Part shown: piece after piece, positions 1-12,539 of the stretch
Numbering within the stretch: position 1 is the first letter of the stretch
Layout of the letters: each line of letters begins with the position of its first letter
Assembly (NCBI RefSeq): GCF_024223415.1
Contig: NZ_CP100500.1
From: Escherichia coli
GTDB lineage: Bacteria; Pseudomonadota; Gammaproteobacteria; Enterobacterales; Enterobacteriaceae
Strand: one strand, 5' to 3'
DNA: 64,000 nt
The notes under the pieces: model-generated
What the model saw: the letters and a program-made list of their open reading frames with translations, nothing else
Told to the model about the DNA's origin: nothing
The model's database searches: none
Translations under genes and position numbers: made by a program

Positions 1-1062
1 CCCAGCCAGTCTTGCCATATACTCTGCATTTTTAGCAGCATATTCTCTGAAGTCTCTTAAAGGCCCCAGAACCGCCATCTTCGATTCCACATCGTTGTAA
101 TAGTCCGTCCAGATTCTGGCTGCCTGAGGAGAAAAGTGAAGGCAACGTCGCTCTCCCCTCATAGCCAGGCTTTCATCAATAAGTTCATTGATCCTCTTGT
201 CAAATAACTCCTGATACTGTGATGAATAATTATCTCCGGTTATTATCCTTGTCCCCTGCGTTGATGTTGGTTGACACATCAAAAACCGTGCATGATGTCC
301 TGATGTCTTCACCAGTTCTTTTTTTCGTGTACAAAAACCTTTGTGGTAAACATCAGGCTGAATCATCACCGATATCGTCAGTCTTGGGTCCTTCAAAAAA
401 ATCCCGGGAGATGATTTCCTGTCGATGAAAAGGGAACTACCATCCCATAAAGAGTTAAGTATTCCCAGTTTGCTCATTGCCCGGCTGTCAAAAATCACCC
501 CGCCCTCACTGGATACAAGAGCAAAAGAGCGATTGCTGTCGGAATAATATTTAAACATTCCCTCTGTCGTCGTATCATTAAAAATTGTCCGATTTATCTG
601 CGGTGGAACAGGACAACTATTCAGATGCATTCTGAGCTCTGATTCTGTTGCTTCATACTCTTTACCGGCACGAATCTCTTTATGAAGTTTTGACTCCAGT
701 GCCTTTTGTTTTTGCTCCCATATTTCCTTTTCTGCACTGTAATTCTCAACCAGTTTCGCATATTCTTCCGCAAGAGTTTCATCCCTGAGATAAAATGCTT
801 TCATAAAAACTTTATCCACGGTCGTTTTCCTTTCGCCGGAATCAGCCAGAATCATAGCGTAAAGATTAGAGGGGCCACGTAAATTACCAGGTCTGCACAC
901 ATCAATCTGATTCTGACAGGCAACTGACACCGCTGTTAATGCTGCTGTTGCAACCAGAGCCCCGGGCGCCTGTGTATTTTGCTGAGTTTCAATTATTGCA
1001 TTTCTCACCAGAGATGTTAATGCATTTATCGGAAAAGGGGCTTCCTGTTCAAGTAAGGACAT
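1..1062 (-). CDS. DUF3987/YfjI-like protein of a P4/CP4-57-type integrative element; 3' end lies beyond the window start
   Basis: Manual reverse translation from ATG (rc of 1060-1062, GAGGT Shine-Dalgarno upstream) is stop-free to position 1; N-terminus MSLLEQEAPFPINALTSLVRNAII. Absent from the ORF track because it has no in-window stop. Family assignment from memory of CP4-57 yfjI. Confidence 0.5.
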   Translation of the reverse strand, partial: MSLLEQEAPFPINALTSLVRNAIIETQQNTQAPGALVATAALTAVSVACQNQIDVCRPGNLRGPSNLYAMILADSGERKTTVDKVFMKAFYLRDETLAEEYAKLVENYSAEKEIWEQKQKALESKLHKEIRAGKEYEATESELRMHLNSCPVPPQINRTIFNDTTTEGMFKYYSDSNRSFALVSSEGGVIFDSRAMSKLGILNSLWDGSSLFIDRKSSPGIFLKDPRLTISVMIQPDVYHKGFCTRKKELVKTSGHHARFLMCQPTSTQGTRIITGDNYSSQYQELFDKRINELIDESLAMRGERRCLHFSPQAARIWTDYYNDVESKMAVLGPLRDFREYAAKNAEYMARLAG

Positions 1063-1321
1063 AAATACCTCAATTTTAGTTAATAAATCAGTAAAGTAGC
1101 AGATATTCCCGCTATAATAGCCAAAATAGCTGCTATGCATAGCCGATATGTTCTGAAAAATACAGTAATCGGGCATACCTGATGTTGAACAAAACGATAA
1201 GGTTGATTCAATTCAGCCTGTATTATTAGCTACGTAACATCATTCACATTGCTCACTCCTGACATCTTCTGATGATTATTTCAACGACGCCTTATTCATG
1301 GTCGTTTTCCTTTTTCATGAA

Positions 1322-1543
1322 TCAAAAAACAACCATAGTGTAAATATTCATGGGTTCACGAAAATTATCTAATCTGCACACATTAGTCAGATCCTGACGG
1401 GAAATTGACATATCTGTTAATACTGGCATTGCCATCAGAGTCAGAGGTACTTGTTTATTATATTGAGCTTTAATCATTGCCTTTCCCATCATTAATGATC
1501 GCGCATATACTGAATACGGCGTATCCGGTTTTATGTAAGACAT
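1322..1543 (-). pseudogene. Truncated degenerate duplicate of the 5' end of the DUF3987-like gene
   Basis: 73-aa ORF; protein and DNA at about 1290-1620 parallel 810-1140 (QVPLTLMAMPVLTDMSISRQDLTNVCRLDNFREP versus QAPGALVATAALTAVSVACQNQIDVCRPGNLRGP). Confidence 0.4.
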
Positions 1544-1718
1544 AAATGCTTCCTTTGTCGTAATGCGTGTCGGTTATAGCAGCAATTACCGCTACAATAG
1601 CGACAATAGCTGCTCTTTCAACAATGAATGCTGGAAATTCTGTTTATCAATTAAACTTCTGGCTAAATTATTCTTATGCTTCTTTTTCCTCCTGAGGTGA
1701 TCACGTGATGACAAAAAC

Positions 1719-2015
1719 TTATCTGCTCATGGTCATATCTGAAGAAAGCGTATGTCGCACTTCGTCATTAACACCTTTTACTGCTGATCTGGCTGGTACA
1801 GTATGTAAAGTAAGCCATTCGTCAATAGCTGATGAACGCCAGCCCACAGAACCACTACCAAGACGTACCGGCCTTGGGAAGGTTGCATCGTAATATTTCG
1901 ATAACGGATTCATTTTTTCGTAAATTGTCGAACGAGATATACCTAACAATTGGCTCAGTTCAGGCATCCGTAAGATGCGTGAAGGAGTCCAGCAGTGTCC
2001 GGATTGATCTGGCAT
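1719..2015 (-). CDS. AlpA-family (prophage CP4-57 type) transcriptional regulator
   Basis: Motif ILRMPELSQLLGISRSTIYEKMNP...YDATFPRPVRLGSGSVGWRSSAIDEWL matches the AlpA helix-turn-helix pattern; start trimmed to the internal Met (MPDQ) of track ORF 1719..2114. Confidence 0.6.
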   Translation of the reverse strand: MPDQSGHCWTPSRILRMPELSQLLGISRSTIYEKMNPLSKYYDATFPRPVRLGSGSVGWRSSAIDEWLTLHTVPARSAVKGVNDEVRHTLSSDMTMSR

Positions 2016-2237
2016 TTTATCCCCCTTAGTGTGGTGAACTGTCGTTACAGTTTGTATTCCTCGGGTAAATTTTTCTGCGTAAAAAAATGGGTTGAGCAAA
2101 AAGACAATAAACAACTAAAAATCAATATGATAGGAAACAACAGCATTATTGTTATTTTACTTTTCCCTTATCGCTGTCGATTCTCATTATCATTCATGGC
2201 AAAAAAACAGTAAAAGAGGCCCTAGTAATGACTCCGG

Positions 2238-2630
2238 TCAGTAGTACATGTGCTTCGATAAATGAACCAATGGCTTTTCGTTAATTTCCACGGAGCGTGA
2301 AAAGCAAATCGTTTTCAGGGATGGGAGTTTGATGTGAGTACGAAGTATCAGATTGTTGCGCTCAATGCGCCGGGTAAATATCCTGCCGACAGGATGCTTA
2401 TCCTGTGGTACTTCTCTGGTATAACTGCACCAGTTTTCACTGGTTATCATGCCTGAGGAGAATGGCTTCAGAAGTTCCGGCAACTCACTACATGTTTCAT
2501 CAGTACGAGGACCAAAAGTGTAAGCCCGCACACCGCCAGATTTGGTGTTATACGCATACCAGAGCCAGTGCTGACGAGCTTTGTTTCCGACAAAGCTCCA
2601 TTGTTCATCAAGTTCGCATATAAGCGCCAC
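2238..2630 (-). CDS. insB: IS1-family InsB-like transposase ORF
   Basis: MALICELDEQWSFVGNKARQHWLWYAYNTK...TRRIERNNLILRTH aligns with IS1 InsB ([23 protein letters not shown]...TQRIERHNLNLRQH); the frame continues upstream of the first Met. Confidence 0.6.
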   Translation of the reverse strand: MALICELDEQWSFVGNKARQHWLWYAYNTKSGGVRAYTFGPRTDETCSELPELLKPFSSGMITSENWCSYTREVPQDKHPVGRIFTRRIERNNLILRTHIKLPSLKTICFSRSVEINEKPLVHLSKHMYY

Positions 2631-2659
2631 ATCGGCACTGGCGACTGGAGATGTGGTTA

Positions 2660-2916
2660 CTTTGCATGGTGAGCGTTTTTTAAAGTGCGAATGACTGTGT
2701 TGATACCCACCTTCAGTGTTCTGGAGGTATCGCGAACCCCGGTTCCGTTATGAGCCATTTCAACGATTTGCTCTTTAACACTTGGTTTTCGGGCTTCGCA
2801 GGTGTAATTCAGTTGAAATACACGTTTGCAGGAGCGGCACTGGAAACAGTGCTGTGACCGTGACGGTACACTTTATCGGAATTACAGCGGGGACAATGTA
2901 CGGTAACTGTTGCCAT
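2660..2916 (-). pseudogene. insA: IS1-family InsA-like ORF with an apparent frameshift in the N-terminal zinc-finger region
   Basis: Reverse translation gives MATVTVHCPRCNSDKVYRHGHSTV then a stop; another frame continues QHCFQCRSCKRVFQLNYT...VEMAHNGTGVRDTSRTLKVGINTVIRTLKN, which is InsA-like. Confidence 0.45.
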
Positions 2917-3111
2917 ATGGACTCCGGATACCAACAGAATACCCCATTAATCTGCCCCCGGAAGTCATCCCGGTGCCTTCTGACATAATCTGTTAATACA
3001 TGAATTATTGCCCTGTTCAGAAAATATTAATTAAAAAATGAAAACCAGTTAACAGAAAAGCCACATGACATAATGTTAAAATTTTATATCGTGCAATAAA
3101 AGGAGAATGTT

Positions 3112-4938
3112 ATGTACAATTTTATCACTATAATGTATGATGTCTTTTCATGTTTTGGTGTTCTGGCTAAAAACCAGAATATCCGTGACATCCGAAATAT
3201 TAAAAACTTTTCCTCACATCAACATTCACTGGCCGACATGTTTGATGAATTAACATACATTATTGACAAAGAACAGGTACTGAGCACAGAACAACGAAAA
3301 GTTATATTCAGGAGATATGAAGATCTGTATGTTAAACTCATGCACTATTCTGTTTTTACAGACAAAACACATCAAATAATAAAACAAAAATATTTTAATG
3401 ATGTTGTTCCAATGATTCTCGCGCTCGACATCAGGAACACATATCGCCCGGATAATGAGATGGCATTTTACTATCATATCCATTCTTTTCTCACTCAGAT
3501 ACCGGATAATGAGGATGATATATATCATGCTGTAAGGACATATATGAGAAATTATGTTAAGTTATGTTTATCCGGATACACACCAACGAATGCGCATTTC
3601 AAAAATATCTTTGATGGAGTATATGAATTCATTCGTAATATTCGCAAAAACAGTACACCCGGAAAAACAAAACTTATTGCAGCTATCAACATATGCAAAG
3701 AAGCCTGTAAATATCTGCTTTGTTTAAGTGATAAAGACAAGGAAATAATATTTTCCGACTTAGATAAAATTCAGGTTGCATGTTATTCTCTCACTATATT
3801 ACTGGCTTTCGAAAGACGAACATCATTAACAAGTAACCTGGCAACTTTATATAAAATGCTGATAAACGAAAGAGAAGTTTCAGAATATGAATGTCAGCAA
3901 TTATATTTAATCAACCCAATAGATGTAATGAATATACTGAACAAATACATATATTACTTCCCTGGTGAGAATTCACCTCTTTATACACTGAAAATTGACA
4001 GTGCATTATCGTGGGATGCCATTGATGCAATACGAGACTATAGTATTTCTGATATTTATCTTTATCCTGAACAAAAAACAATAAATTGTATCGTTGAGAT
4101 TGAAAACATTGTCTTTGGCGGTTACATTTATACATTGAGCGACGGCGTCACATTACAAAATATGGAAAACACTTTAAAAGATTCCTCATGTCATTATGTA
4201 TTAAATGGCTATACAGAATTTGTTAACTGTTTAAGACAACTTACTTCAGGAAAGACTGAAAGTGTTCAGCGTACCATTAATAAACTGGAGTACGAAAAAT
4301 TACCTTTTGGATTTATCATTGCCGCGTTTGCTATATTAAAAATAGCATTTAAGATAAAGTTCAGTAAAAATCATGTAAATACCAGGGCATTATTAAATGA
4401 CATCAGTTATTTTATGACTTATCAGGGCGAGTCCATTAATCTTATTTCACTGGATCATGAATATCCAGAGTTCCGTCTTCAAAATGACACAAATACATAT
4501 TTATTGGGAAGGATGATATTTCTATATAACTCAATGATCTATAAATTCAGAAACTGCCAGGAACATGAAACCAATAACATTAACTCAGTTATGATAAATA
4601 ACCTATTACAGGAAGTTGATATAGCCCTTGGTAAAATAAATGACATTATAGACAGCAGAAACATATCAGTCCCCCATGAACTGGCAAATATTCTTATCCA
4701 CGAAAAAATACTTACAACACGTGAAAAAAAAGGAAACCTGATAAGCCTGTTTGATGGATTCACTTTATTCCATTGTGTTGGAATGATAACCTTTCTTATC
4801 CATTACCTCAGAACTCCTGAAGAAAAAGTAGAAAATGTATTTATGTTATATGGTGCAGATAAAAACAATAAACTACGCAGAAGACTGATTTATGATGCAC
4901 TAGAAATAATTCAGTCTCAGCAGGAGATGAAACCTTAA
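3112..4938 (+). CDS. Hypothetical 608-aa protein; AT-rich orphan cargo gene with no recognisable motif
   Basis: Long ORF with canonical AAGGAG Shine-Dalgarno 8 nt upstream of the ATG; AT-rich composition; no P-loop, HEPN, nuclease or transmembrane signature seen by eye. Confidence 0.8.
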   Translation: MYNFITIMYDVFSCFGVLAKNQNIRDIRNIKNFSSHQHSLADMFDELTYIIDKEQVLSTEQRKVIFRRYEDLYVKLMHYSVFTDKTHQIIKQKYFNDVVPMILALDIRNTYRPDNEMAFYYHIHSFLTQIPDNEDDIYHAVRTYMRNYVKLCLSGYTPTNAHFKNIFDGVYEFIRNIRKNSTPGKTKLIAAINICKEACKYLLCLSDKDKEIIFSDLDKIQVACYSLTILLAFERRTSLTSNLATLYKMLINEREVSEYECQQLYLINPIDVMNILNKYIYYFPGENSPLYTLKIDSALSWDAIDAIRDYSISDIYLYPEQKTINCIVEIENIVFGGYIYTLSDGVTLQNMENTLKDSSCHYVLNGYTEFVNCLRQLTSGKTESVQRTINKLEYEKLPFGFIIAAFAILKIAFKIKFSKNHVNTRALLNDISYFMTYQGESINLISLDHEYPEFRLQNDTNTYLLGRMIFLYNSMIYKFRNCQEHETNNINSVMINNLLQEVDIALGKINDIIDSRNISVPHELANILIHEKILTTREKKGNLISLFDGFTLFHCVGMITFLIHYLRTPEEKVENVFMLYGADKNNKLRRRLIYDALEIIQSQQEMKP

Positions 4939-4961
4939 ACAGGAAAATTATTTTTTATAAA

Positions 4962-4986
4962 CAGGGGATTATTGAGTAATCCCCTG
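4962..4986. terminator. Hairpin between the convergent 608-aa gene and int
   Basis: Inverted repeat CAGGGGA...TCCCCTG flanked by A/T runs. Confidence 0.35.
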
Positions 4987-5122
4987 CTCATCAAAACCCA
5001 CTTTCCTGACAATCTGATAACTATCAGCTCAATACATTTGACATAAAAGAGATCCCTTAATTATTACCGTTACGGTCACAATCACATATCAAATCATGAT
5101 TGTACAATATACATTTTCACTA

Positions 5123-6325
5123 TTATTTATTCATAATCTGAGACATCACATAATCCGCCCATGCCTGCATCATCGGTACACGCTGCTCCAGTAGATCAGT
5201 ACGATGATATGCCGCCTCAACCTTATTTTTCAGCGTATGAGCGAGCGCCCTTTCAGCCAGATCCCGCGAATACCCCTGCTCACTACACCAGTCCCTGAAT
5301 GTTGAACGAAAACCATGTGCCGTGGCGACTCGCCCCGGAATATCACTGACGGCTTTCTTTTTACGCAGAAAACTGGTCAACACCATATCTGAAAGGATCT
5401 GCTGCTTTCTGGGTGAAGGAAACACCAGTTCATCATGCAGACCACGTATATTTTCCAGAATGTAAATAGCCTGTCGGGATAAAGGAACACGATGCTGTAC
5501 CCTGGCTTTCATTCTTTCTGCTGGTATCGTCCATATCTGCTTATGAAAATCAATTTCAGTCCAGCGCATTCCCCTGGCTTCACCCGAGCGGGTTGCTGTA
5601 AGTATCACCATTAATAACAATGCGCGGGTAACATTATAGGGTTCATCGGTATACACACTGGTCGCCACAAAAAGCGGTAACTGCCTCCATGGCATTGCGG
5701 GTTGGTGTTCATCACGTCCTCTTGTCTGCTGGGGAAGCAAATGATCAACCACATCCACAGGATTTGCCACACAAAAACCATGTGCCCATCCCCACTGCAT
5801 AACAACATGAATGCGCTGTTTAACCCGGCTTGCCGTTTCTGACAAAGTTAACCAGACTGGCCGCAGTGTTTCTGCCACGTCCGCAGCCGTAATCGAATCC
5901 AGCGTTTTCGCTCCCAGTTGAGGAAAGGCGTAATTCTCAAGCGTCGATAACCACTGCCGGACATGCTTTGGATTTTCCCATCCAGGAGACAGTTCTGCAT
6001 GTACACGTCTGGCTGCATCGGCAAATGTTGGGATAACAACTTTTTCAGCCTCAGCCTTTTTAATCTCCAGAGGATCATCACCAGCAGCAAGTTGCTCTCG
6101 CATTATCCGGGCAGTACGTGCAGCTTCAGCAATGCTGATCTCAGGGTAAGTTCCCAATCCAGCATTACGCCTTTTTTGTGTCACCGGACTTACATAACGA
6201 AAAACCCATTTACCCCGACCCTTTACTGAAGAAGGATGAAGGGTCAGTCCTGTAATTCCCCCATGGGGCAATGGTTTGTCATCAGGTTTGATATGCCTTG
6301 CTTTCGTATCCGTCAATACTGCCAT
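5123..6325 (-). CDS. int: Tyrosine integrase, P4/CP4-57 family
   Basis: 400 aa; C-terminal catalytic region HGFRSTFRDWCSEQGYSRDLAERALAHTLKNKVEAAYHRTDLLEQR is typical of P4-like integrases. Confidence 0.9.
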   Translation of the reverse strand: MAVLTDTKARHIKPDDKPLPHGGITGLTLHPSSVKGRGKWVFRYVSPVTQKRRNAGLGTYPEISIAEAARTARIMREQLAAGDDPLEIKKAEAEKVVIPTFADAARRVHAELSPGWENPKHVRQWLSTLENYAFPQLGAKTLDSITAADVAETLRPVWLTLSETASRVKQRIHVVMQWGWAHGFCVANPVDVVDHLLPQQTRGRDEHQPAMPWRQLPLFVATSVYTDEPYNVTRALLLMVILTATRSGEARGMRWTEIDFHKQIWTIPAERMKARVQHRVPLSRQAIYILENIRGLHDELVFPSPRKQQILSDMVLTSFLRKKKAVSDIPGRVATAHGFRSTFRDWCSEQGYSRDLAERALAHTLKNKVEAAYHRTDLLEQRVPMMQAWADYVMSQIMNK

Positions 6326-6343
6326 ACGCTAATTCCTGTTACT

Positions 6344-6367
6344 CTGGTATGCCATCTGGTATGCCAT
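6344..6367. repeat. Tandem direct repeat CTGGTATGCCAT x2 just upstream of the int start; candidate arm-type integrase site
   Basis: Two perfect adjacent 12-bp copies 19-44 bp upstream of the int ATG. Confidence 0.4.
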
Positions 6368-6482
6368 TATCTTCACGCTTCAGTCAGAATACAGTAGATG
6401 ACATCAGACAGTAAAATATGCAATATACTGTTTATAATCAAATTTTATGACACAACAGGACTCATTCAGATTCATTTCAGGC

Positions 6483-6499
6483 GGTCCCCCTCACCGCCA
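6483..6499 (+). other. tRNA 3'-end-like sequence (CCCCTCACCGCCA); candidate att core or host serW 3' remnant at the island boundary
   Basis: Resembles a tRNA-Ser acceptor/CCA end but no complete tRNA (no T-arm) precedes it; followed by an intrinsic terminator. Confidence 0.35.
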
Positions 6500-6510
6500 T
6501 ATTTAAAGAA

Positions 6511-6541
6511 GAGCTCGTACGAAAGTGCGAGCTTTTTTTTT
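6511..6541 (+). terminator. Rho-independent terminator
   Basis: AGCTCG-loop-CGAGCT stem followed by a T9 run. Confidence 0.6.
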
Positions 6542-6543
6542 CG

Positions 6544-6692
6544 CATTTTATCTGCCTGTACGGCAGTGAACATGGTGGGCGGGTGGAGTATGTTACCAGT
6601 GAATTTCTAAGCTGCCTGTACGGCAGTGAACGTTTGCTGCAACCGCTAGCCAAGACGGTAGGTTTTTCTAAGCTGCCTGTACGGCAGTGAAC
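6544..6692 (-). CRISPR. Orphan type I-F CRISPR mini-array: 3 repeats, 2 spacers, no cas genes in the window
   Basis: Minus-strand repeat GTTCACTGCCGTACAGGCAGCTTAGAAA (the E. coli I-F repeat) at 6604-6631 and 6665-6692 plus a degenerate terminal copy at 6544-6571; spacers of 32-33 nt. Confidence 0.85.
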
Positions 6693-6842
6693 TCAAATAC
6701 TACACGTTTAGCCCGTTGTTAATAAAGCAAAACCATCCCATTCTCCTGCAGCACCCTTTTTTATCCTTACCTTCCAGCAGCACTAATTATCAACAACTTA
6801 CCTTCACCTCCAAAAATAGGGTTTTCACCGTTCCACCCCATA

Positions 6843-6879
6843 AATAAAAAGTCCGTAACCTCTTTCGAGATTACGGACT
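6843..6879 (-). terminator. clpA transcription terminator
   Basis: Stem AGTCCGTAA / TTACGGACT followed on the minus strand by a T-run, about 25 bp past the clpA stop. Confidence 0.6.
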
Positions 6880-6903
6880 TCACCAACCTACCTGACAATC
6901 AGA

Positions 6904-9180
6904 TTAATGCGCTGCTTCCGCCTTGTGCTTTTGTGCACTCTGAAATCCGTAAGTCAGCTCATTTTTCTCTTTATCCAGCGCGACGGTGACCTGACCGCCG
7001 TCCACCAGCGAACCAAACAGCAGTTCGTTGGCAAGCGGTTTTTTCAGGTTGTCCTGGATGACACGCGCCATCGGACGAGCGCCCATTGCCCGGTCGTAAC
7101 CTTTCTCGGCCAGCCAGTTACGCGCTTCCTGGCTCACTTCCAGAGAAACACCTTTCTGATCCAGCTGAACCTGCAACTCGACGATGAATTTATCCACCAC
7201 CTGATGGATCACGTCAGTTGACAGATGATCGAACCAGATAATGTTGTCGAGACGGTTACGGAATTCCGGTGTAAAGATCTTCTTGATCTCTTCCATCGCA
7301 TCGGTGCTGTTATCCTGGTGGATAAGACCAATGGATTTGCGCTCAGTTTCCCGTACCCCGGCGTTAGTGGTCATCACCAGTACCACGTTACGGAAGTCCG
7401 CTTTGCGTCCGTTGTTATCGGTCAGCGTACCGTTGTCCATCACCTGCAACAGAATATTGAACACGTCCGGATGCGCTTTCTCGATTTCGTCCAGCAGCAG
7501 CACCGCATGTGGATGCTTGATGACCGCATCAGTCAGCAAACCGCCCTGATCAAAACCAACGTATCCCGGAGGCGCACCAATCAGACGGCTGACGGTATGG
7601 CGTTCCATATACTCGGACATATCAAAGCGCAGAAGCTCAATGCCCAAAGCTTTCGAAAGCTGTACCGTCACCTCTGTTTTCCCGACCCCGGTAGGACCGG
7701 CAAACAGGAACGAACCGACCGGTTTATGTTCGTGACCTAAACCTGCACGCGCCATCTTAATGGCTTCAGTCAGCGCCTCAATGGCTTTATCCTGACCGAA
7801 GACCAGCATTTTCAGGCGATCGCCGAGGTTTTTCAGGGTATCGCGGTCACTCTGAGAAACACTCTTCTCTGGAATGCGTGCAATACGGGCCACCACGGAC
7901 TCAATATCCGCCACATTAACGGTTTTCTTGCGTTTGCTTACCGGCATCAGGCGTGCGCGAGCGCCCGCTTCGTCGATAACATCAATCGCTTTATCCGGCA
8001 GATGACGATCGTTAATGTATTTCACCGCCAGCTCTACCGCCGCACGCACCGCTTTTGCGGTATAACGCACGTCGTGGTGCGCTTCATACTTCGGTTTCAG
8101 GCCATTGATGATTTGAACAGTTTCTTCGATCGACGGTTCAGTAATATCAATTTTCTGGAAGCGACGCGCCAGAGCACGGTCTTTCTCGAAAATGTTGCTG
8201 AACTCCTGATAGGTTGTCGAACCAATTACGCGAATTTTACCGCTGGAGAGCAACGGTTTGATTAGGTTAGCCGCATCGACCTGACCACCAGACGCTGCAC
8301 CCGCACCGATAATGGTGTGGATCTCATCAATAAACAGGATGCTGTTAGTGTCCTGCTCCAGCTGCTTGAGCAACGCTTTAAAACGTTTTTCAAAGTCGCC
8401 GCGATATTTTGTGCCCGCTAACAGAGAACCGATATCGAGAGAGTAAATCGTACAGTCAGCCATCACTTCCGGCACATCGCCCTGAACAATTCGCCAGGCA
8501 AGACCTTCTGCAATCGCGGTTTTACCGACACCAGATTCCCCCACTAGCAGCGGGTTGTTTTTACGGCGACGGCAGAGAACCTGAATAGCACGCTCCAGCT
8601 CCTTCTCACGACCAATCAGTGGGTCGATTCCGCCCACGCGCGCAAGCTGATTCAGGTTCGTCGTGAAATTCTCCATACGTTCCTCCCCACCAGCTTGTTC
8701 TTCGCTGTTTGGCTGGCTGCCAGGATCAGAAGACTGTGTCGGCTCGTCTTTACGCGTGCCATGAGAGATAAAGTTCACCACATCGAGACGGCTGACTTCA
8801 TGTTTACGCAACAGATATGCCGCCTGCGACTCCTGTTCGCTAAAGATAGCGACCAGAACGTTTGCACCGGTAACCTCATTGCGACCGGAGGACTGGACAT
8901 GGAAGACCGCACGTTGCAGTACACGCTGAAAACTCAGCGTCGGCTGTGTGTCGCGCTCCTCTTCACTGGCAGGCAGAACGGGTGTGGTTTGTTCAATAAA
9001 GGCTTCCAGTTCCTGACGGAGCGCAACCAAATCCACAGAACACGCTTCCAGCGCCTCCCGGGCAGATGGGTTACTGAGCAGCGCCAGTAACAAGTGCTCG
9101 ACGGTCATAAACTCATGACGGTGCTCGCGCGCTCTGGCGAAAGCCATATTTAAACTGAGTTCCAGTTCTTGATTGAGCAT
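6904..9180 (-). CDS. clpA: ATP-dependent Clp protease ATP-binding subunit ClpA
   Basis: Product begins [35 protein letters not shown] and carries two AAA+ Walker A motifs ([16 protein letters not shown]); start trimmed from the track ORF. Confidence 0.95.
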
Positions 9181-9210
9181 AGGCACCTCCCCCAATTTTT
9201 ATGCCTGCAT

Positions 9211-9531
9211 TCAGGCTTTTTCTAGCGTACACAGCAATGGATGCTCATTCTCCCTCGCGTACTTGTTCACCATCGCCACTTTGGTTTCTGCAACCTCGGC
9301 GGTAAAGACTCCGCAAATGGCCTTCCCCTGGTAGTGAACAGCGAGCATCAATTGCGTTGCACGTTCTACATCATAAGAAAAGAATTTTTGTAACACGTCA
9401 ATAACAAACTCCATCGGAGTGTAATCATCATTGACTAATATCACTTTATACATAGATGGCGGTTTTAGCGCGTCGCGAACTTTTTCTTCCGCCAGTTGAT
9501 CAAAGTCCAGCCAGTCGTTCGTTTTACCCAT
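9211..9531 (-). CDS. clpS: ClpS adaptor protein
   Basis: 106 aa, [47 protein letters not shown], directly upstream of clpA. Confidence 0.95.
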
Positions 9532-9616
9532 TGTCAGTTATCATCTTCGGTTACGGTTATCGGCAGAACGCCCTGCCGCTGACAAGAGCTTATTTGCCTG
9601 ACCAATCTACTCCACA

Positions 9617-9633
9617 TGATAGATAACTATCAT
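9617..9633. other. Left att core candidate TGATAGATAACTATCAT
   Basis: Near-identical copy TGATAAATAACTATCAT at 20087-20103. Confidence 0.4.
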
Positions 9634-9705
9634 TTATATCATTTAGTTAATTAGTCTTTATTTTTCATTATGTTGCAAATAACAAGCCCGTCAAAAACAG
9701 TGATA

Positions 9706-9760
9706 TTAACTACACCATTAACTACACCGCTTCACGAACAATATCGAACAACCGCGAACA
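9706..9760. repeat. Left-arm repeats: AACTACACC x2 followed by CGAACA x3 (candidate integrase or accessory-factor sites)
   Basis: The same motifs recur in the same orientation at 19946-20078. Confidence 0.4.
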
Positions 9761-9880
9761 AAGATCAACACGCTTTAATCATTATCATTTTCCGGCTATC
9801 CGTCATGAAGCTGGTGGATGATCTGCGTGGTGATTTCCACCATTCAGAGCAGGTGCGGTCATCATGACCATGCCATAACA

Positions 9881-9905
9881 AAAACCCCATATTCGTGGTT
9901 TTTCT
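9881..9905 (+). repeat. 25-bp direct repeat copy 1 (AAAACCCCATATTCGTGGTTTTTCT)
   Basis: Second copy AAACCCCCGGATTCGTGGTTTTCCT at 10518-10542; the pair flanks a hairpin-rich non-coding segment. Confidence 0.5.
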
Positions 9906-10517
9906 GTGTCGGGGCTATTCTGCTGTTGCCGTGCTGGTGGATATTCTCCGGTATGCGGCTCCCCATATCGGCATCAGGCCCACCAGCGTGAAGCGTTTTT
10001 CATTTTTCGCGGGTATAAAAAATCGATGGGGCGGGCAGTCCTGAAGACGTCAGGGTACAGAGATTTGACCCGCCCCTCCCTGTGCATGAGCACAATAAGT
10101 AACCGAAGGCGGAATTCCGCCCTCGGTACTTACATATGAGAAACGATATTTCTTCCACCGATACCCTTTATTTGGGTATCGCGAGTAAGCCCCAAAATCT
10201 GGGTGTTACTCTTACTACCCAAACTACGGGTAGTTTCCGTAGTTTCATGGTCGAGTTGCAAATCTGCAACTCACCCACCAGCCAGCGCAATGTCGCATTA
10301 TCAGTCCTCAGATGTGAGGGATGTAGCCAGCTTTTCCCCCAGTGGGGATTATCCAGTTACCGACGGTTTAACCGCCTGTACCAGCACAACGAAAGAATTT
10401 GCGGGTAGCTTTAAACTACTCACAACATCCCATCTTACAGGCCGTGCCTTTCTAACTTTTTACAATGCAATAAGTCAGGTAACGCTATGCGTTCCACCGT
10501 GTACACCGCGCCAGTAA

Positions 10518-10542
10518 AACCCCCGGATTCGTGGTTTTCCTG
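10518..10542 (+). repeat. 25-bp direct repeat copy 2
   Basis: See copy 1 at 9881-9905. Confidence 0.5.
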
Positions 10543-10554
10543 AATATCAGGAAT

Positions 10555-10929
10555 CTACCGCCGCAACCGTTCCGGCTTCTTCCACTGATAAGTGTTTTTC
10601 GCGCTCTCCCTCCGTTGTTGAGAACGGCGACGGTATGCCAGCAACTCAAGGACTCTGGTTCGTATGTTGCGCATATCCACGCCGTTAAGCTCAATACCAT
10701 CACGGCGCATCACCTCAGCAACAACACACGCGTAATTTTCGGCTATCACGCTGTCCGGCTGCGTGGCCTCCTGTTCGCCAGCCTGCTGGCTGATTCCGGT
10801 AATACTGCGGATTATCCCGAGCGCTTCGGTCTCGGTCATGGTCATGGCCTCCATAGTGATGGCGGGTCCTCCTTGTGGGGTGCCCTGCCACGGGGCGGGA
10901 GCATCGCGGAAAAAGGCTAGTTTTTGCAT
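10555..10929 (-). CDS. Hypothetical protein of the satellite packaging module
   Basis: 124-aa ORF downstream of the Nu1-like gene; no recognisable domain; start uncertain. Confidence 0.45.
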   Translation of the reverse strand: MQKLAFFRDAPAPWQGTPQGGPAITMEAMTMTETEALGIIRSITGISQQAGEQEATQPDSVIAENYACVVAEVMRRDGIELNGVDMRNIRTRVLELLAYRRRSQQRRESAKNTYQWKKPERLRR

Positions 10930-11090
10930 TTTTATTCGTTATCACCACCAATGCAATATATTGATATGACTTGATGTTTTATTTTTCGGTGTCGATTTCG
11001 ATTGTTTTTTGTTCATCACTGACGCATAACGCCCACCAGCGCAACGCTGAAAGCCAGTCAGTAAACTGGCTTCGGTCATTGTGCACTACG

Positions 11091-11645
11091 TTACTTGTCT
11101 TTATCCGGCTGAAACTTATCAGGCACATTTCCGGTAGTTTCCATCAGATAATCGGACAGCATTCGCGGGATGTTTTCATCAAGTTTTGTGCATGCGTTAC
11201 AGGCTCTGACAACTTCTTTTTTCAGGCCATCCAGCATGGCGGGGGTCATCTGTGGGAAGCTCCTTTGCATAGTAAGCGGGAGGCTGTCCATGATTGATGA
11301 AATCTGACTCGCCAGTTTTGAAAGCGCGTACATGCAAAACTCTGTATCAATCACGTCACCGCGATCGCGCTCGTTTTTAAGTTCCTGCGCCTCCGCCTGT
11401 GCTGTCAGTAATCTGATCCTGACTCGTAAAAGTTCATCATCGTCAATCTCGCCTTTGTCGTTTGTAATCTGGCTGATTGCATTGTTAACCCGATTATCTA
11501 TTACACTGGCGACATCATAAAACGTCTCACGGCCCTTACGCTCGACGGGAATCACTCCCCACTTATCGAACGCAGTGGCGCTTACTCGGCAGCTTTTCGC
11601 CATGTTTTTTTTATTCATCAGGTGCGATTTCATCAATACCCCCAC
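11091..11645 (-). CDS. Terminase small subunit, lambda Nu1-like
   Basis: LLRVRIRLLTAQAEAQELKNERDRGDVIDTEFCMYALSKLASQISSIMDSLPLTMQRSFPQM...LDENIPRMLSDYL aligns with lambda Nu1; probable true start at the MNKKNMAK Met near 11618. Confidence 0.8.
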   Translation of the reverse strand: MGVLMKSHLMNKKNMAKSCRVSATAFDKWGVIPVERKGRETFYDVASVIDNRVNNAISQITNDKGEIDDDELLRVRIRLLTAQAEAQELKNERDRGDVIDTEFCMYALSKLASQISSIMDSLPLTMQRSFPQMTPAMLDGLKKEVVRACNACTKLDENIPRMLSDYLMETTGNVPDKFQPDKDK

Positions 11646-11727
11646 TTAATTAATGCTTCAGGTTGGTGTGTTGGTGTTATCTTTCCATTTTTATTCATAG
11701 AGATAGAGCGAACAACAAAACCACCAC

Positions 11728-11790
11728 CAACCCGAAAAGGCTCATAAATAGCGAAAATCCGCAAGGTCGACGCCCCGTAACGGGTCCACA
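11728..11790 (-). other. Lambda-type cos site (cosN/cosB)
   Basis: Minus strand reads ACGGGGCGTCGACCTTGCGGATTTTCGCTATTTATGAGCCTTTTCGGG, matching the lambda cos sequence as I recall it (ACGGGGCGGCGACCTCGCGGGTTTTCGCTATTTATGAAAATTTTCCGG); about 120 bp upstream of the Nu1-like gene. Confidence 0.8.
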
Positions 11791-11805
11791 TGCCGGAAAG
11801 GACCC

Positions 11806-11835
11806 ATAAAAAATAAAGCCGGACTACTCCGGCTT
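11806..11835 (-). terminator. Rho-independent terminator after the FinO/ProQ-like gene
   Basis: Stem AGCCGGA / TCCGGCT followed on the minus strand by a T-rich run. Confidence 0.5.
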
Positions 11836-11858
11836 CGTCTCTTCATGTGGTCAGGGTT

Positions 11859-12539
11859 TTATGCTTTCCGTACGCCCGAGGAACTGGCATTTTTCAGAAT
11901 AATATTATGCCCTGCTGGTGGCTTACCGTTATGCTTATTTTCTGCCTTCATGTTTCTGCGCTCCTGCTGTTTTTTCTTCATCTCATCCAGTCGCTTCCCC
12001 GCGTTCAACTGGTGCTCCTGTGTCACCTCCCCGCACGGATGGCCTTTCAGGTCGTAACGCACGCCACCAGCCATCAGGGAACGGTAATATCGCACTGAAC
12101 TGACATAATACGCCAGCGTTGCGCGAAGCGCTCCCTGACCTAATGAAATACCTCTCGCAGTAATATCCTCCATCAGGTCATCAAATATGCCAACCTTAAG
12201 CGGTCTGGGCGATTCCTGGCTGAAAAGTTCAGGCCAGAGCGCGGCAAGGCGTTCAACGCGTCTGATATTTTTTTTCCGGCTCTTTTCTGATTTGCGTTTT
12301 GCTGCCGTCTTCTGTTGTGTTTTCTGCTCGCGGCTCTGCTTTTGCGCTGGTGTGGTTTTATCCGGCTGTTCAGCCTCCTGCGTCTTTTTCTGCGGTGTGC
12401 CGTATATGCCTTTTGGTTTTCGGTTAATGGTCAGCTTTGTCATGTTCTCCCCCTTTGTGCTGTTCCACCAGCGGCATCTGCTACCCCGTGTCGCTCCCGC
12501 TGGTGTCGTGTTTCCCCGCCTGTTAATAACCGTCATCAT
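11859..12539 (-). CDS. FinO/ProQ-domain RNA-binding protein with a Lys/Gln-rich N-terminal region
   Basis: RPLKVGIFDDLMEDITARGISLGQGALRATLAYYVSSVRYYRSLMAGGVRYDLKGHPCGEVTQEHQ aligns with the E. coli ProQ N-terminal domain (RPLKIGIFQDL...RLYTSSWRYL...RVDLDGNPCGEL); start uncertain. Confidence 0.75.
   Translation of the reverse strand: MMTVINRRGNTTPAGATRGSRCRWWNSTKGENMTKLTINRKPKGIYGTPQKKTQEAEQPDKTTPAQKQSREQKTQQKTAAKRKSEKSRKKNIRRVERLAALWPELFSQESPRPLKVGIFDDLMEDITARGISLGQGALRATLAYYVSSVRYYRSLMAGGVRYDLKGHPCGEVTQEHQLNAGKRLDEMKKKQQERRNMKAENKHNGKPPAGHNIILKNASSSGVRKA

Follow-up and report, generated by a model that had tools for sequence, protein, structure and literature searches.

The genomic islands OI-43/OI-48 and SRL-PAI carry a P4-family integrase that still excises islands, and for both a 14-bp direct repeat has been reported that recurs at the locus described here (PMC3064760). 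In the serX island of CFT073, in O157:H7 and in other strains, the genes behind the integrase gene int follow a common order, namely a 605-aa hypothetical protein, an IS1 pseudogene, an alpha-type helix-turn-helix (HTH) regulator and YfjI, and RefSeq labels these IS1 orthologues "IS1 family transposase; frameshifted; internal stop". We analyzed the corresponding region of an Escherichia coli genome in a stretch of 64,000 nucleotides (NCBI RefSeq assembly GCF_024223415.1, contig NZ_CP100500.1; hereafter the window); an island at the clpA-serW locus reaches into its left 6.5 kb with the end that carries the integrase. Here, a relic of an IS1-family insertion sequence (IS) occupies 748 bp at positions 2224–2971 on the minus strand, with gene order insA then insB on that strand, between the regulator gene alpA and orf608, which encodes a 608-aa protein. 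This relic is very probably a non-functional fossil of the IS1N/IS1H branch, left by a single ancient insertion between alpA and orf608 and subject to neutral decay since. More than 1,000 E. coli genomes have counterparts that already bear a pseudogene annotation, and the element is an ordinary one; a literature search on the topics of IS1N/IS1H and SRL-PAI found no work specific to it.

Family membership and extent of the relic

The ends of the element were placed by alignment to the CFT073 and O157 orthologues and to the ends of IS1A and IS1H-like elements. A preliminary description, made from the sequence without database searches, had put the element at 2224–2975; the start is retained, but the end at 2975 takes in four flanking bases and is placed here at 2971. 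The family was assigned using Pfam and NCBIfam profiles, a search of 5.8 billion protein clusters and BLAST against E. coli genomes. When the 13 bases missing from insA were restored, the translation of the insA part matched both the zinc ribbon of InsA (PF03811, Zn_ribbon_InsA; 1.2e-19) and the HTH domain (PF12759, HTH_Tnp_IS1; 5.8e-26), two halves that lie in different frames of the native gene. The insB frame matched PF03400 (DDE_Tnp_IS1; 7.4e-54) over profile positions 1–131 of 131, and the conceptual InsAB' fusion scored 225 bits against NF033558 (transpos_IS1), for which the NCBIfam cut-off is 100 bits. The following features of the IS1 family are present: an InsA with zinc ribbon and HTH, a DDE-type InsB', the A6C frameshift motif, and the ends and length of such an element (about 770 bp, with imperfect repeats beginning GGTGATG / GGTAATG), here 748 bp with the recognisable, degraded ends GG-GATGAC... 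and AGTAATGACTCC..., where orthologues have GGTGATGCC and GGTAATGACTCC. These matches, together with the lesions in insA described below, agree with the earlier impression of a divergent, defective IS1-family element. The accompanying estimate, by eye, that it is about half identical to canonical IS1 was also accurate, as 366 of 744 nucleotides (49%) are identical to IS1A of K-12 and the amino acid identity to its InsAB' is 39.7%.

The closest intact protein among the 5.8 billion clusters is an IS1-family transposase of Enterobacter mori (75% amino acid identity), and no intact transposase above that value was found there. IS1N of Shigella dysenteriae (71–72%) and a Klebsiella IS1-family transposase (71%) follow, and ISEc30 is at 66% in the same search. 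At the DNA level, the closest non-orthologous E. coli sequence is IS1H-like, with 72% nucleotide identity over 93% of the element. An ancestor of the relic, reconstructed by parsimony and polarised with outgroups of the IS1N and E. mori types, comes to 78–81% amino acid identity with intact proteins (best, 80.8%). By the ISfinder convention, elements share a name at roughly ≥95% amino acid or ≥90% nucleotide identity; with 71–72% (amino acid) and 72% (nucleotide), the relic shares its name with neither IS1N nor IS1H. These comparisons place the relic within the IS1N/IS1H branch, yet it is no copy of any sampled active element.

Lesions in insA, insB and the terminal repeats

The insA remnant extends over 2657–2916 (minus strand), from an ATG at 2916–2914 to the original-frame stop TAA at 2659–2657, and still encodes both CxxC pairs and the HTH in two different frames. 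Translation from the ATG gives MATVTVHCPRCNSDKVYRHGHS, after which the frame breaks, and the second frame reads FQCRSCKRVFQL...IRTLKNAHHAK up to its stop. The frame is shifted by the loss of 13 bp between the two CxxC pairs, with the junction at 2848–2849 (minus strand), where orthologues carry CTCAGATCATGAG; this loss brings in a stop at 2811–2809, codon 36 when read from the ATG. Residues occupy these positions in the intact transposases of IS1N and E. mori, so the 13-bp loss is read as a deletion in the window lineage. The junction is located ~165 bp from the programmed −1 frameshift motif TTTAAAAAAC (A6C; 2675–2684, minus strand), which aligns to the IS1A motif and is intact in the window; in CFT073-type alleles, this slippery motif is mutated to TTTATAAAAC. 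The preliminary description had likewise noted that insA is frameshifted within its zinc-finger region and not at the programmed site, and accurate alignment gives no intact in-frame insA that would speak against it. A sequencing artefact was ruled out as the source of the frameshift, since the deletion is 13 bp long, is not in a homopolymer and recurs unchanged in three assemblies made independently. None of the 32 alleles compared has an intact insA, and the uninterrupted insA and −1 InsAB' fusion of an autonomous element are lacking.

The insB' frame (DDE_Tnp_IS1; 2238–2681, minus strand) is open to a TGA at 2240–2238 and has no ATG of its own upstream of a GTG at 2630. At 2436–2438 (minus strand), a GAA (Glu) codon stands where 11 of 11 intact IS1-family transposases have an Asp, corresponding to IS1A position 166 (D166E) in the TDGW/SDDW motif. 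Given its invariance in the family, D166 probably provides the second acidic residue of the DDE triad. At columns invariant in the same 11 transposases, D166E, K184R, R206L and H218N are private to the window allele, while Q188R, L204P and I222L are common to all lineages; in all of these except I222L, the relic was scored as departing from the conserved residues of an autonomous element. In addition, about the last 13 codons of insB are scrambled by indels (2250–2279, minus strand), as judged from the alternative-frame translation and the C-termini of IS1N and E. mori. An A-run at 2274–2279 has lost 1 nt in all copies (GAAAAAG to GAAAAG), and an extra 2-nt loss in the window lineage puts the frame back. 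The present terminus ...EKPLVHLSKHMYY would have taken the place of an ancestral ...EKAIGSFIEKHMYY, each followed by a stop; the alternative-frame EKAIGSFIEKHMYY agrees with the IS1N and E. mori C-termini.

Damage extends to the terminal repeats. The left, insA-side inverted repeat (2945–2971, minus strand) is degraded, reading GG-GATGACTTCC... as against GGTGATGCCTTC... in orthologues, with a 1-bp deletion at position 3 (GG-GATG vs GGTGATG). The right, insB-side inverted repeat (2224–2247, minus strand), with the sequence ...GGAGTCATTACT, ends in ...CATTACT; 57 of the 65 copies compared end in ...CATTACC. In an ungapped comparison of the left and right inverted repeats, 12 of 30 positions match in the window, 18 of 30 in the CFT073 relic, 21 of 30 in IS1A and 22 of 30 in an IS1H-like copy.

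When the window is compared with the CFT073/O157 alleles, the ratio of nonsynonymous to synonymous divergence (dN/dS) is 0.72–1.05 for insB and 0.72–0.80 for insA; among the neighbouring genes, it is 0.05 for int, 0.07 for alpA and 0.22 for orf608. The relic is 90.4% identical to that of CFT073 at the nucleotide level, with 16 indel positions, and the intergenic DNA of the island backbone is 88.8–94.2% identical. With these ratios and a single site of insertion, the relic lacks both the multiple sites and the purifying selection of a functional IS1.

Orthologous copies and the insertion event

The flanks on both sides of the relic are homologous in CFT073 (serX island), FCI5, O157, enterotoxigenic E. 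coli (ETEC) and other copies. Both flanks are carried by ~1,026 of 5,426 complete E. coli genomes, ~763 bp apart, a spacing seen in every row that was inspected and supported by the coverage statistics, and a query with the two flanks joined found contiguous flanks, that is, an empty site, in none of these ~1,026 genomes. A 31-nt flank pattern identified 56 metagenome loci, with the element present in all 55 that could be evaluated. Neither this pattern nor the orf608 peptide patterns matched any species-representative contig; the species representatives are evidently without an island of this family. In 65 copies representing 32 alleles, the junctions scarcely differ. In all alleles other than that of the window, the second CxxC pair is interrupted by a TAA stop, where the window keeps a CGC codon. 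The CFT073/O157 alleles have in addition lost the first Cys (Cys8), and the slippery site is mutated in some of them; the window keeps both Cys8 and A6C. Its allele is not among the 5,426 complete genomes and was found only in three draft or read-derived assemblies, in which the relic is identical. Each island has one copy, found in at most two places per genome, and the window contains no other IS1-family sequence.

The comparison with islands lacking the IS, which the preliminary description had proposed, found no empty site at nucleotide level and had to be drawn from distant relatives. In four of these (27–34% amino acid identity), the orf608 homologue is divergent from alpA across a spacer of 100–103 bp with nothing between, and the alpA–orf608 homologue pair is followed by DUF3987, YfjJ and integrase genes. 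Because this spacer holds nothing, the insertion is placed in an intergenic, divergent promoter region; the IS splits the intergenic region of the conserved divergent pair alpA/orf608, with no sign that it split a gene. The suggestion that an earlier cargo gene had been disrupted is not borne out, as the relatives' spacer has no gene and both neighbours are under purifying selection. Nor does the IS sit in island cargo, as had been thought, but in a conserved module proximal to the integrase, and orf608 itself, previously described as cargo, does not look like cargo: its homologues adjoin alpA, in divergent orientation, in the same int/DUF3987/YfjJ module in the four distant relatives. A distantly related alpA–orf608 island (GCA_031093565.1) has an open reading frame (ORF) for an InsA zinc ribbon (PF03811) at 9899–10061, ~3 kb downstream of the orf608 homologue. 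IS1-family elements recur in the alpA–orf608 island class, at other positions.

As no empty site was found, the single insertion therefore rests on the common junctions and the common lesions. The same evidence bears on whether the relic is a non-autonomous IS1 derivative that can still be mobilised, or whether elements inserted independently at a hot spot in different islands. The window allele does keep the A6C site and all four zinc-finger cysteines, and the same allele is found in islands at serW (the window) and at serX (another assembly). However, the junctions are the same at both ends in 65 of 65 copies, lesions are common across lineages, and the element always occupies one position, with its at most two places per genome fitting the known duplicate serW/serX islands. 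The terminal repeats are also damaged, and the search of protein clusters gave no intact transposase more than 75% identical. The presence of one allele at both serW and serX is explained because the integrase moves the whole island between tRNA genes with the same 14-bp target (PMC3064760), and we regard mobilisation or repeated insertion as extremely improbable.

The reading that we prefer is one transposition event, which would have placed the element in the alpA–orf608 intergenic region of a P4-integrase island targeting serW/serX before today's island lineages diverged. Mobility would then have been lost, and the copy would have been carried passively with the island backbone, gathering neutral substitutions and indels. 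The window allele carries the 13-bp insA deletion, the 1-bp deletion in the left repeat, the altered end base of the right repeat, the Asp-to-Glu change and the scrambled insB 3' end. The commoner CFT073/O157 alleles have other lesions: the TAA stop in the CxxC pair, the missing first Cys and, for part of them, the mutation of the slippery site. As a transposon, the relic would now be inert and at most a 748-bp spacer between the promoters of alpA and orf608.

Some observations weigh against this history. IS1-family insertions duplicate 8–9 bp of their target. A possible decayed 8-bp target-site duplication is located at 2216–2223 on the alpA side (GAGGCCCT) and 2972–2979 on the orf608 side (GGTGCCTT; GGGGCCTT in most alleles). 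These flanking 8-mers agree at 5 of 8 positions in the window and at 6 of 8 in the common allele (chance P ~0.007 for one register), so that the best case is a weak match, and no empty site was found at nucleotide-level homology. Moreover, synonymous divergence (dS) is 0.17–0.18 for int and orf608 and 0.06 for alpA, with the relic's own divergence at ~0.07–0.14; the divergence is uneven, and the backbone is therefore taken to be mosaic and a simple co-divergence clock fails. Finally, 31 of the 32 alleles keep an open insB frame, a possible hint of retention.

That open frame could also indicate that the relic has been exapted, whether through its DNA, as an insulator, spacer or source of promoters between alpA and orf608, or through the frame itself, as a truncated protein of the InsB type. 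In the same direction, the relic is fixed in every examined island, with no empty site in the ~1,026 genomes and 55 metagenome contigs, and lies inside the divergent promoter region. Fixation is nevertheless explained by inheritance from one ancestor, and simulated random substitution at the observed divergence leaves insB open in 27–38% of runs. With chance P at 0.27–0.38 and dN/dS at ~1, the open insB frame was rejected as a sign of selection. The ratio is ~1 in insA as well as insB, family-invariant residues are substituted, and the whole element tolerates indels, the alignment to CFT073 having 16 gap positions. Promoter-like hexamers for both alpA and orf608 are found in the native flanks, outside the IS, although such hexamers are weak evidence. 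Taken together, exaptation appears very unlikely. We also consider it improbable that the relic is the only surviving trace of an unsampled isoform of the IS1N/IS1H clade and has been kept in every serW/serX island because its 748 bp uncouple the divergent promoters of alpA and orf608; such an uncoupling role, if true, would represent the regulatory exaptation of a dead IS. The data show directly the family of the element, its lesions, the orthology of the insertion, its neutral evolution and, within the data searched, the lack of empty sites and intact copies; from them we infer a single ancient insertion that is now inactive and has no regulatory role. The IS may affect expression, as the preliminary description raised.

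Genomic setting and known systems

The module order in the window is int, orf608, the IS, alpA, a 73-aa ORF and a DUF3987/YfjI-like gene. The alpA-like regulator gene (1719–2015, minus strand; 98 aa in RefSeq orthologues; PF05930, 1e-18) lies 208 bp from the IS. On the other side, at a distance of 140 bp, orf608 (3112–4938, plus strand) is transcribed away from the IS and encodes an all-alpha orphan with only ~15 full-length distant relatives and no sequence match in Pfam, PADLOC or PDB. A match to BrxL_N was disregarded, being sub-threshold (0.0047) in one of 16 family members. The P4-family tyrosine integrase gene follows at 5123–6325 (minus strand; PF13356, PF22022 and PF00589), and the island ends at 6486–6499 (plus strand) in the 14-bp direct repeat CCCCCTCACCGCCA, which represents the last 14 nt of tRNA-Ser serW/serX (cryptic ser'W) and adjoins clpA. 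Integrase, tRNA-Ser repeat and clpA-serW location together identify a serW/serX P4-integrase island, of which the end with the intact tRNA is located outside the window. ARAGORN found no tRNA in positions 1–12000, and a search for the serW 3' end with up to three mismatches gave no match, only the 14-bp repeat being present.

The backbone at positions 1–6400 differs by ~9% from the common CFT073/O157 allele, and the best of the 5,426 complete genomes reaches 91.7% identity. It is 99.95% identical to the three draft or read-derived assemblies, and in one of these the island is at serX, not serW. Identity is uneven along its length, with 98.3% in alpA, 95.7% in int and only 71–75% in the region 1001–1400, as might be expected of a backbone that is mosaic or recombinant. 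The region from the DUF3987/YfjI-like gene to alpA contains a diverged direct repeat of ~320 bp (812–1134 and 1292–1614; 69% identity), which spans the 73-aa ORF at 1322–1543 and is also found in CFT073. Beyond the island end, a small orphan CRISPR (clustered regularly interspaced short palindromic repeats) array occupies 6545–6692 (minus strand), between clpA and the island. It contains Rfam CRISPR-DR4 repeats at 6604–6631 and 6665–6692 (50 bits each) and a degenerate third at ~6545–6572, with a period of ~61 bp, and the region is labelled "RtT sRNA" in some RefSeq records. The repeat resembles the E. coli type I-F repeat, of the CRISPR4 locus between clpA and infA.

The relic itself, ordinary and already annotated, is of little weight. 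The insertion and its lineage-specific lesions, the 13-bp deletion versus the TAA stop, are useful as markers of descent and recombination of the serW/serX backbone in OI-43/48, SpLE1 and the serX island of CFT073; the allele of this backbone in the window is a rare one. Of more interest is the neighbour orf608, an all-alpha orphan that is conserved and under selection. In this island class it always occurs together with alpA, and no homologue of it, by family or by structure, is detectable.

Compared with known elements, the relic resembles IS1N of S. dysenteriae and the intact IS1 elements of Enterobacter, Klebsiella and Pectobacterium in its zinc-ribbon/HTH InsA, A6C motif and DDE InsB', and also in general length and termini, the intact IS1N-type elements having ~765 bp and GGTGATG.../...CATTACC ends. 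However, it is inactivated and only 71–75% identical to them in amino acid sequence (78–81% for its ancestor), whereas those elements are intact and multicopy. The IS1H-like elements of E. coli have a similar inverted-repeat start (GGTGATGCCT) but differ by 28% nucleotide divergence and other insertion sites, and the IS1H-like copy examined is itself frameshifted. The relic and IS1A belong to one family and agree in gene order, slippery motif and the bases at their ends; IS1A differs from the relic in being active and multicopy and in showing 49% nucleotide and 40% amino acid identity. The IS1 pseudogene of the CFT073 serX island and of O157:H7 (OI-43/OI-48 type) is its orthologue, at the same site with the same neighbours and 88–90% nucleotide identity. 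Unlike this orthologue, the window copy has lost 13 bp of insA and one base of the left inverted repeat and carries D166E, and it keeps the CGC codon, Cys8 and A6C.
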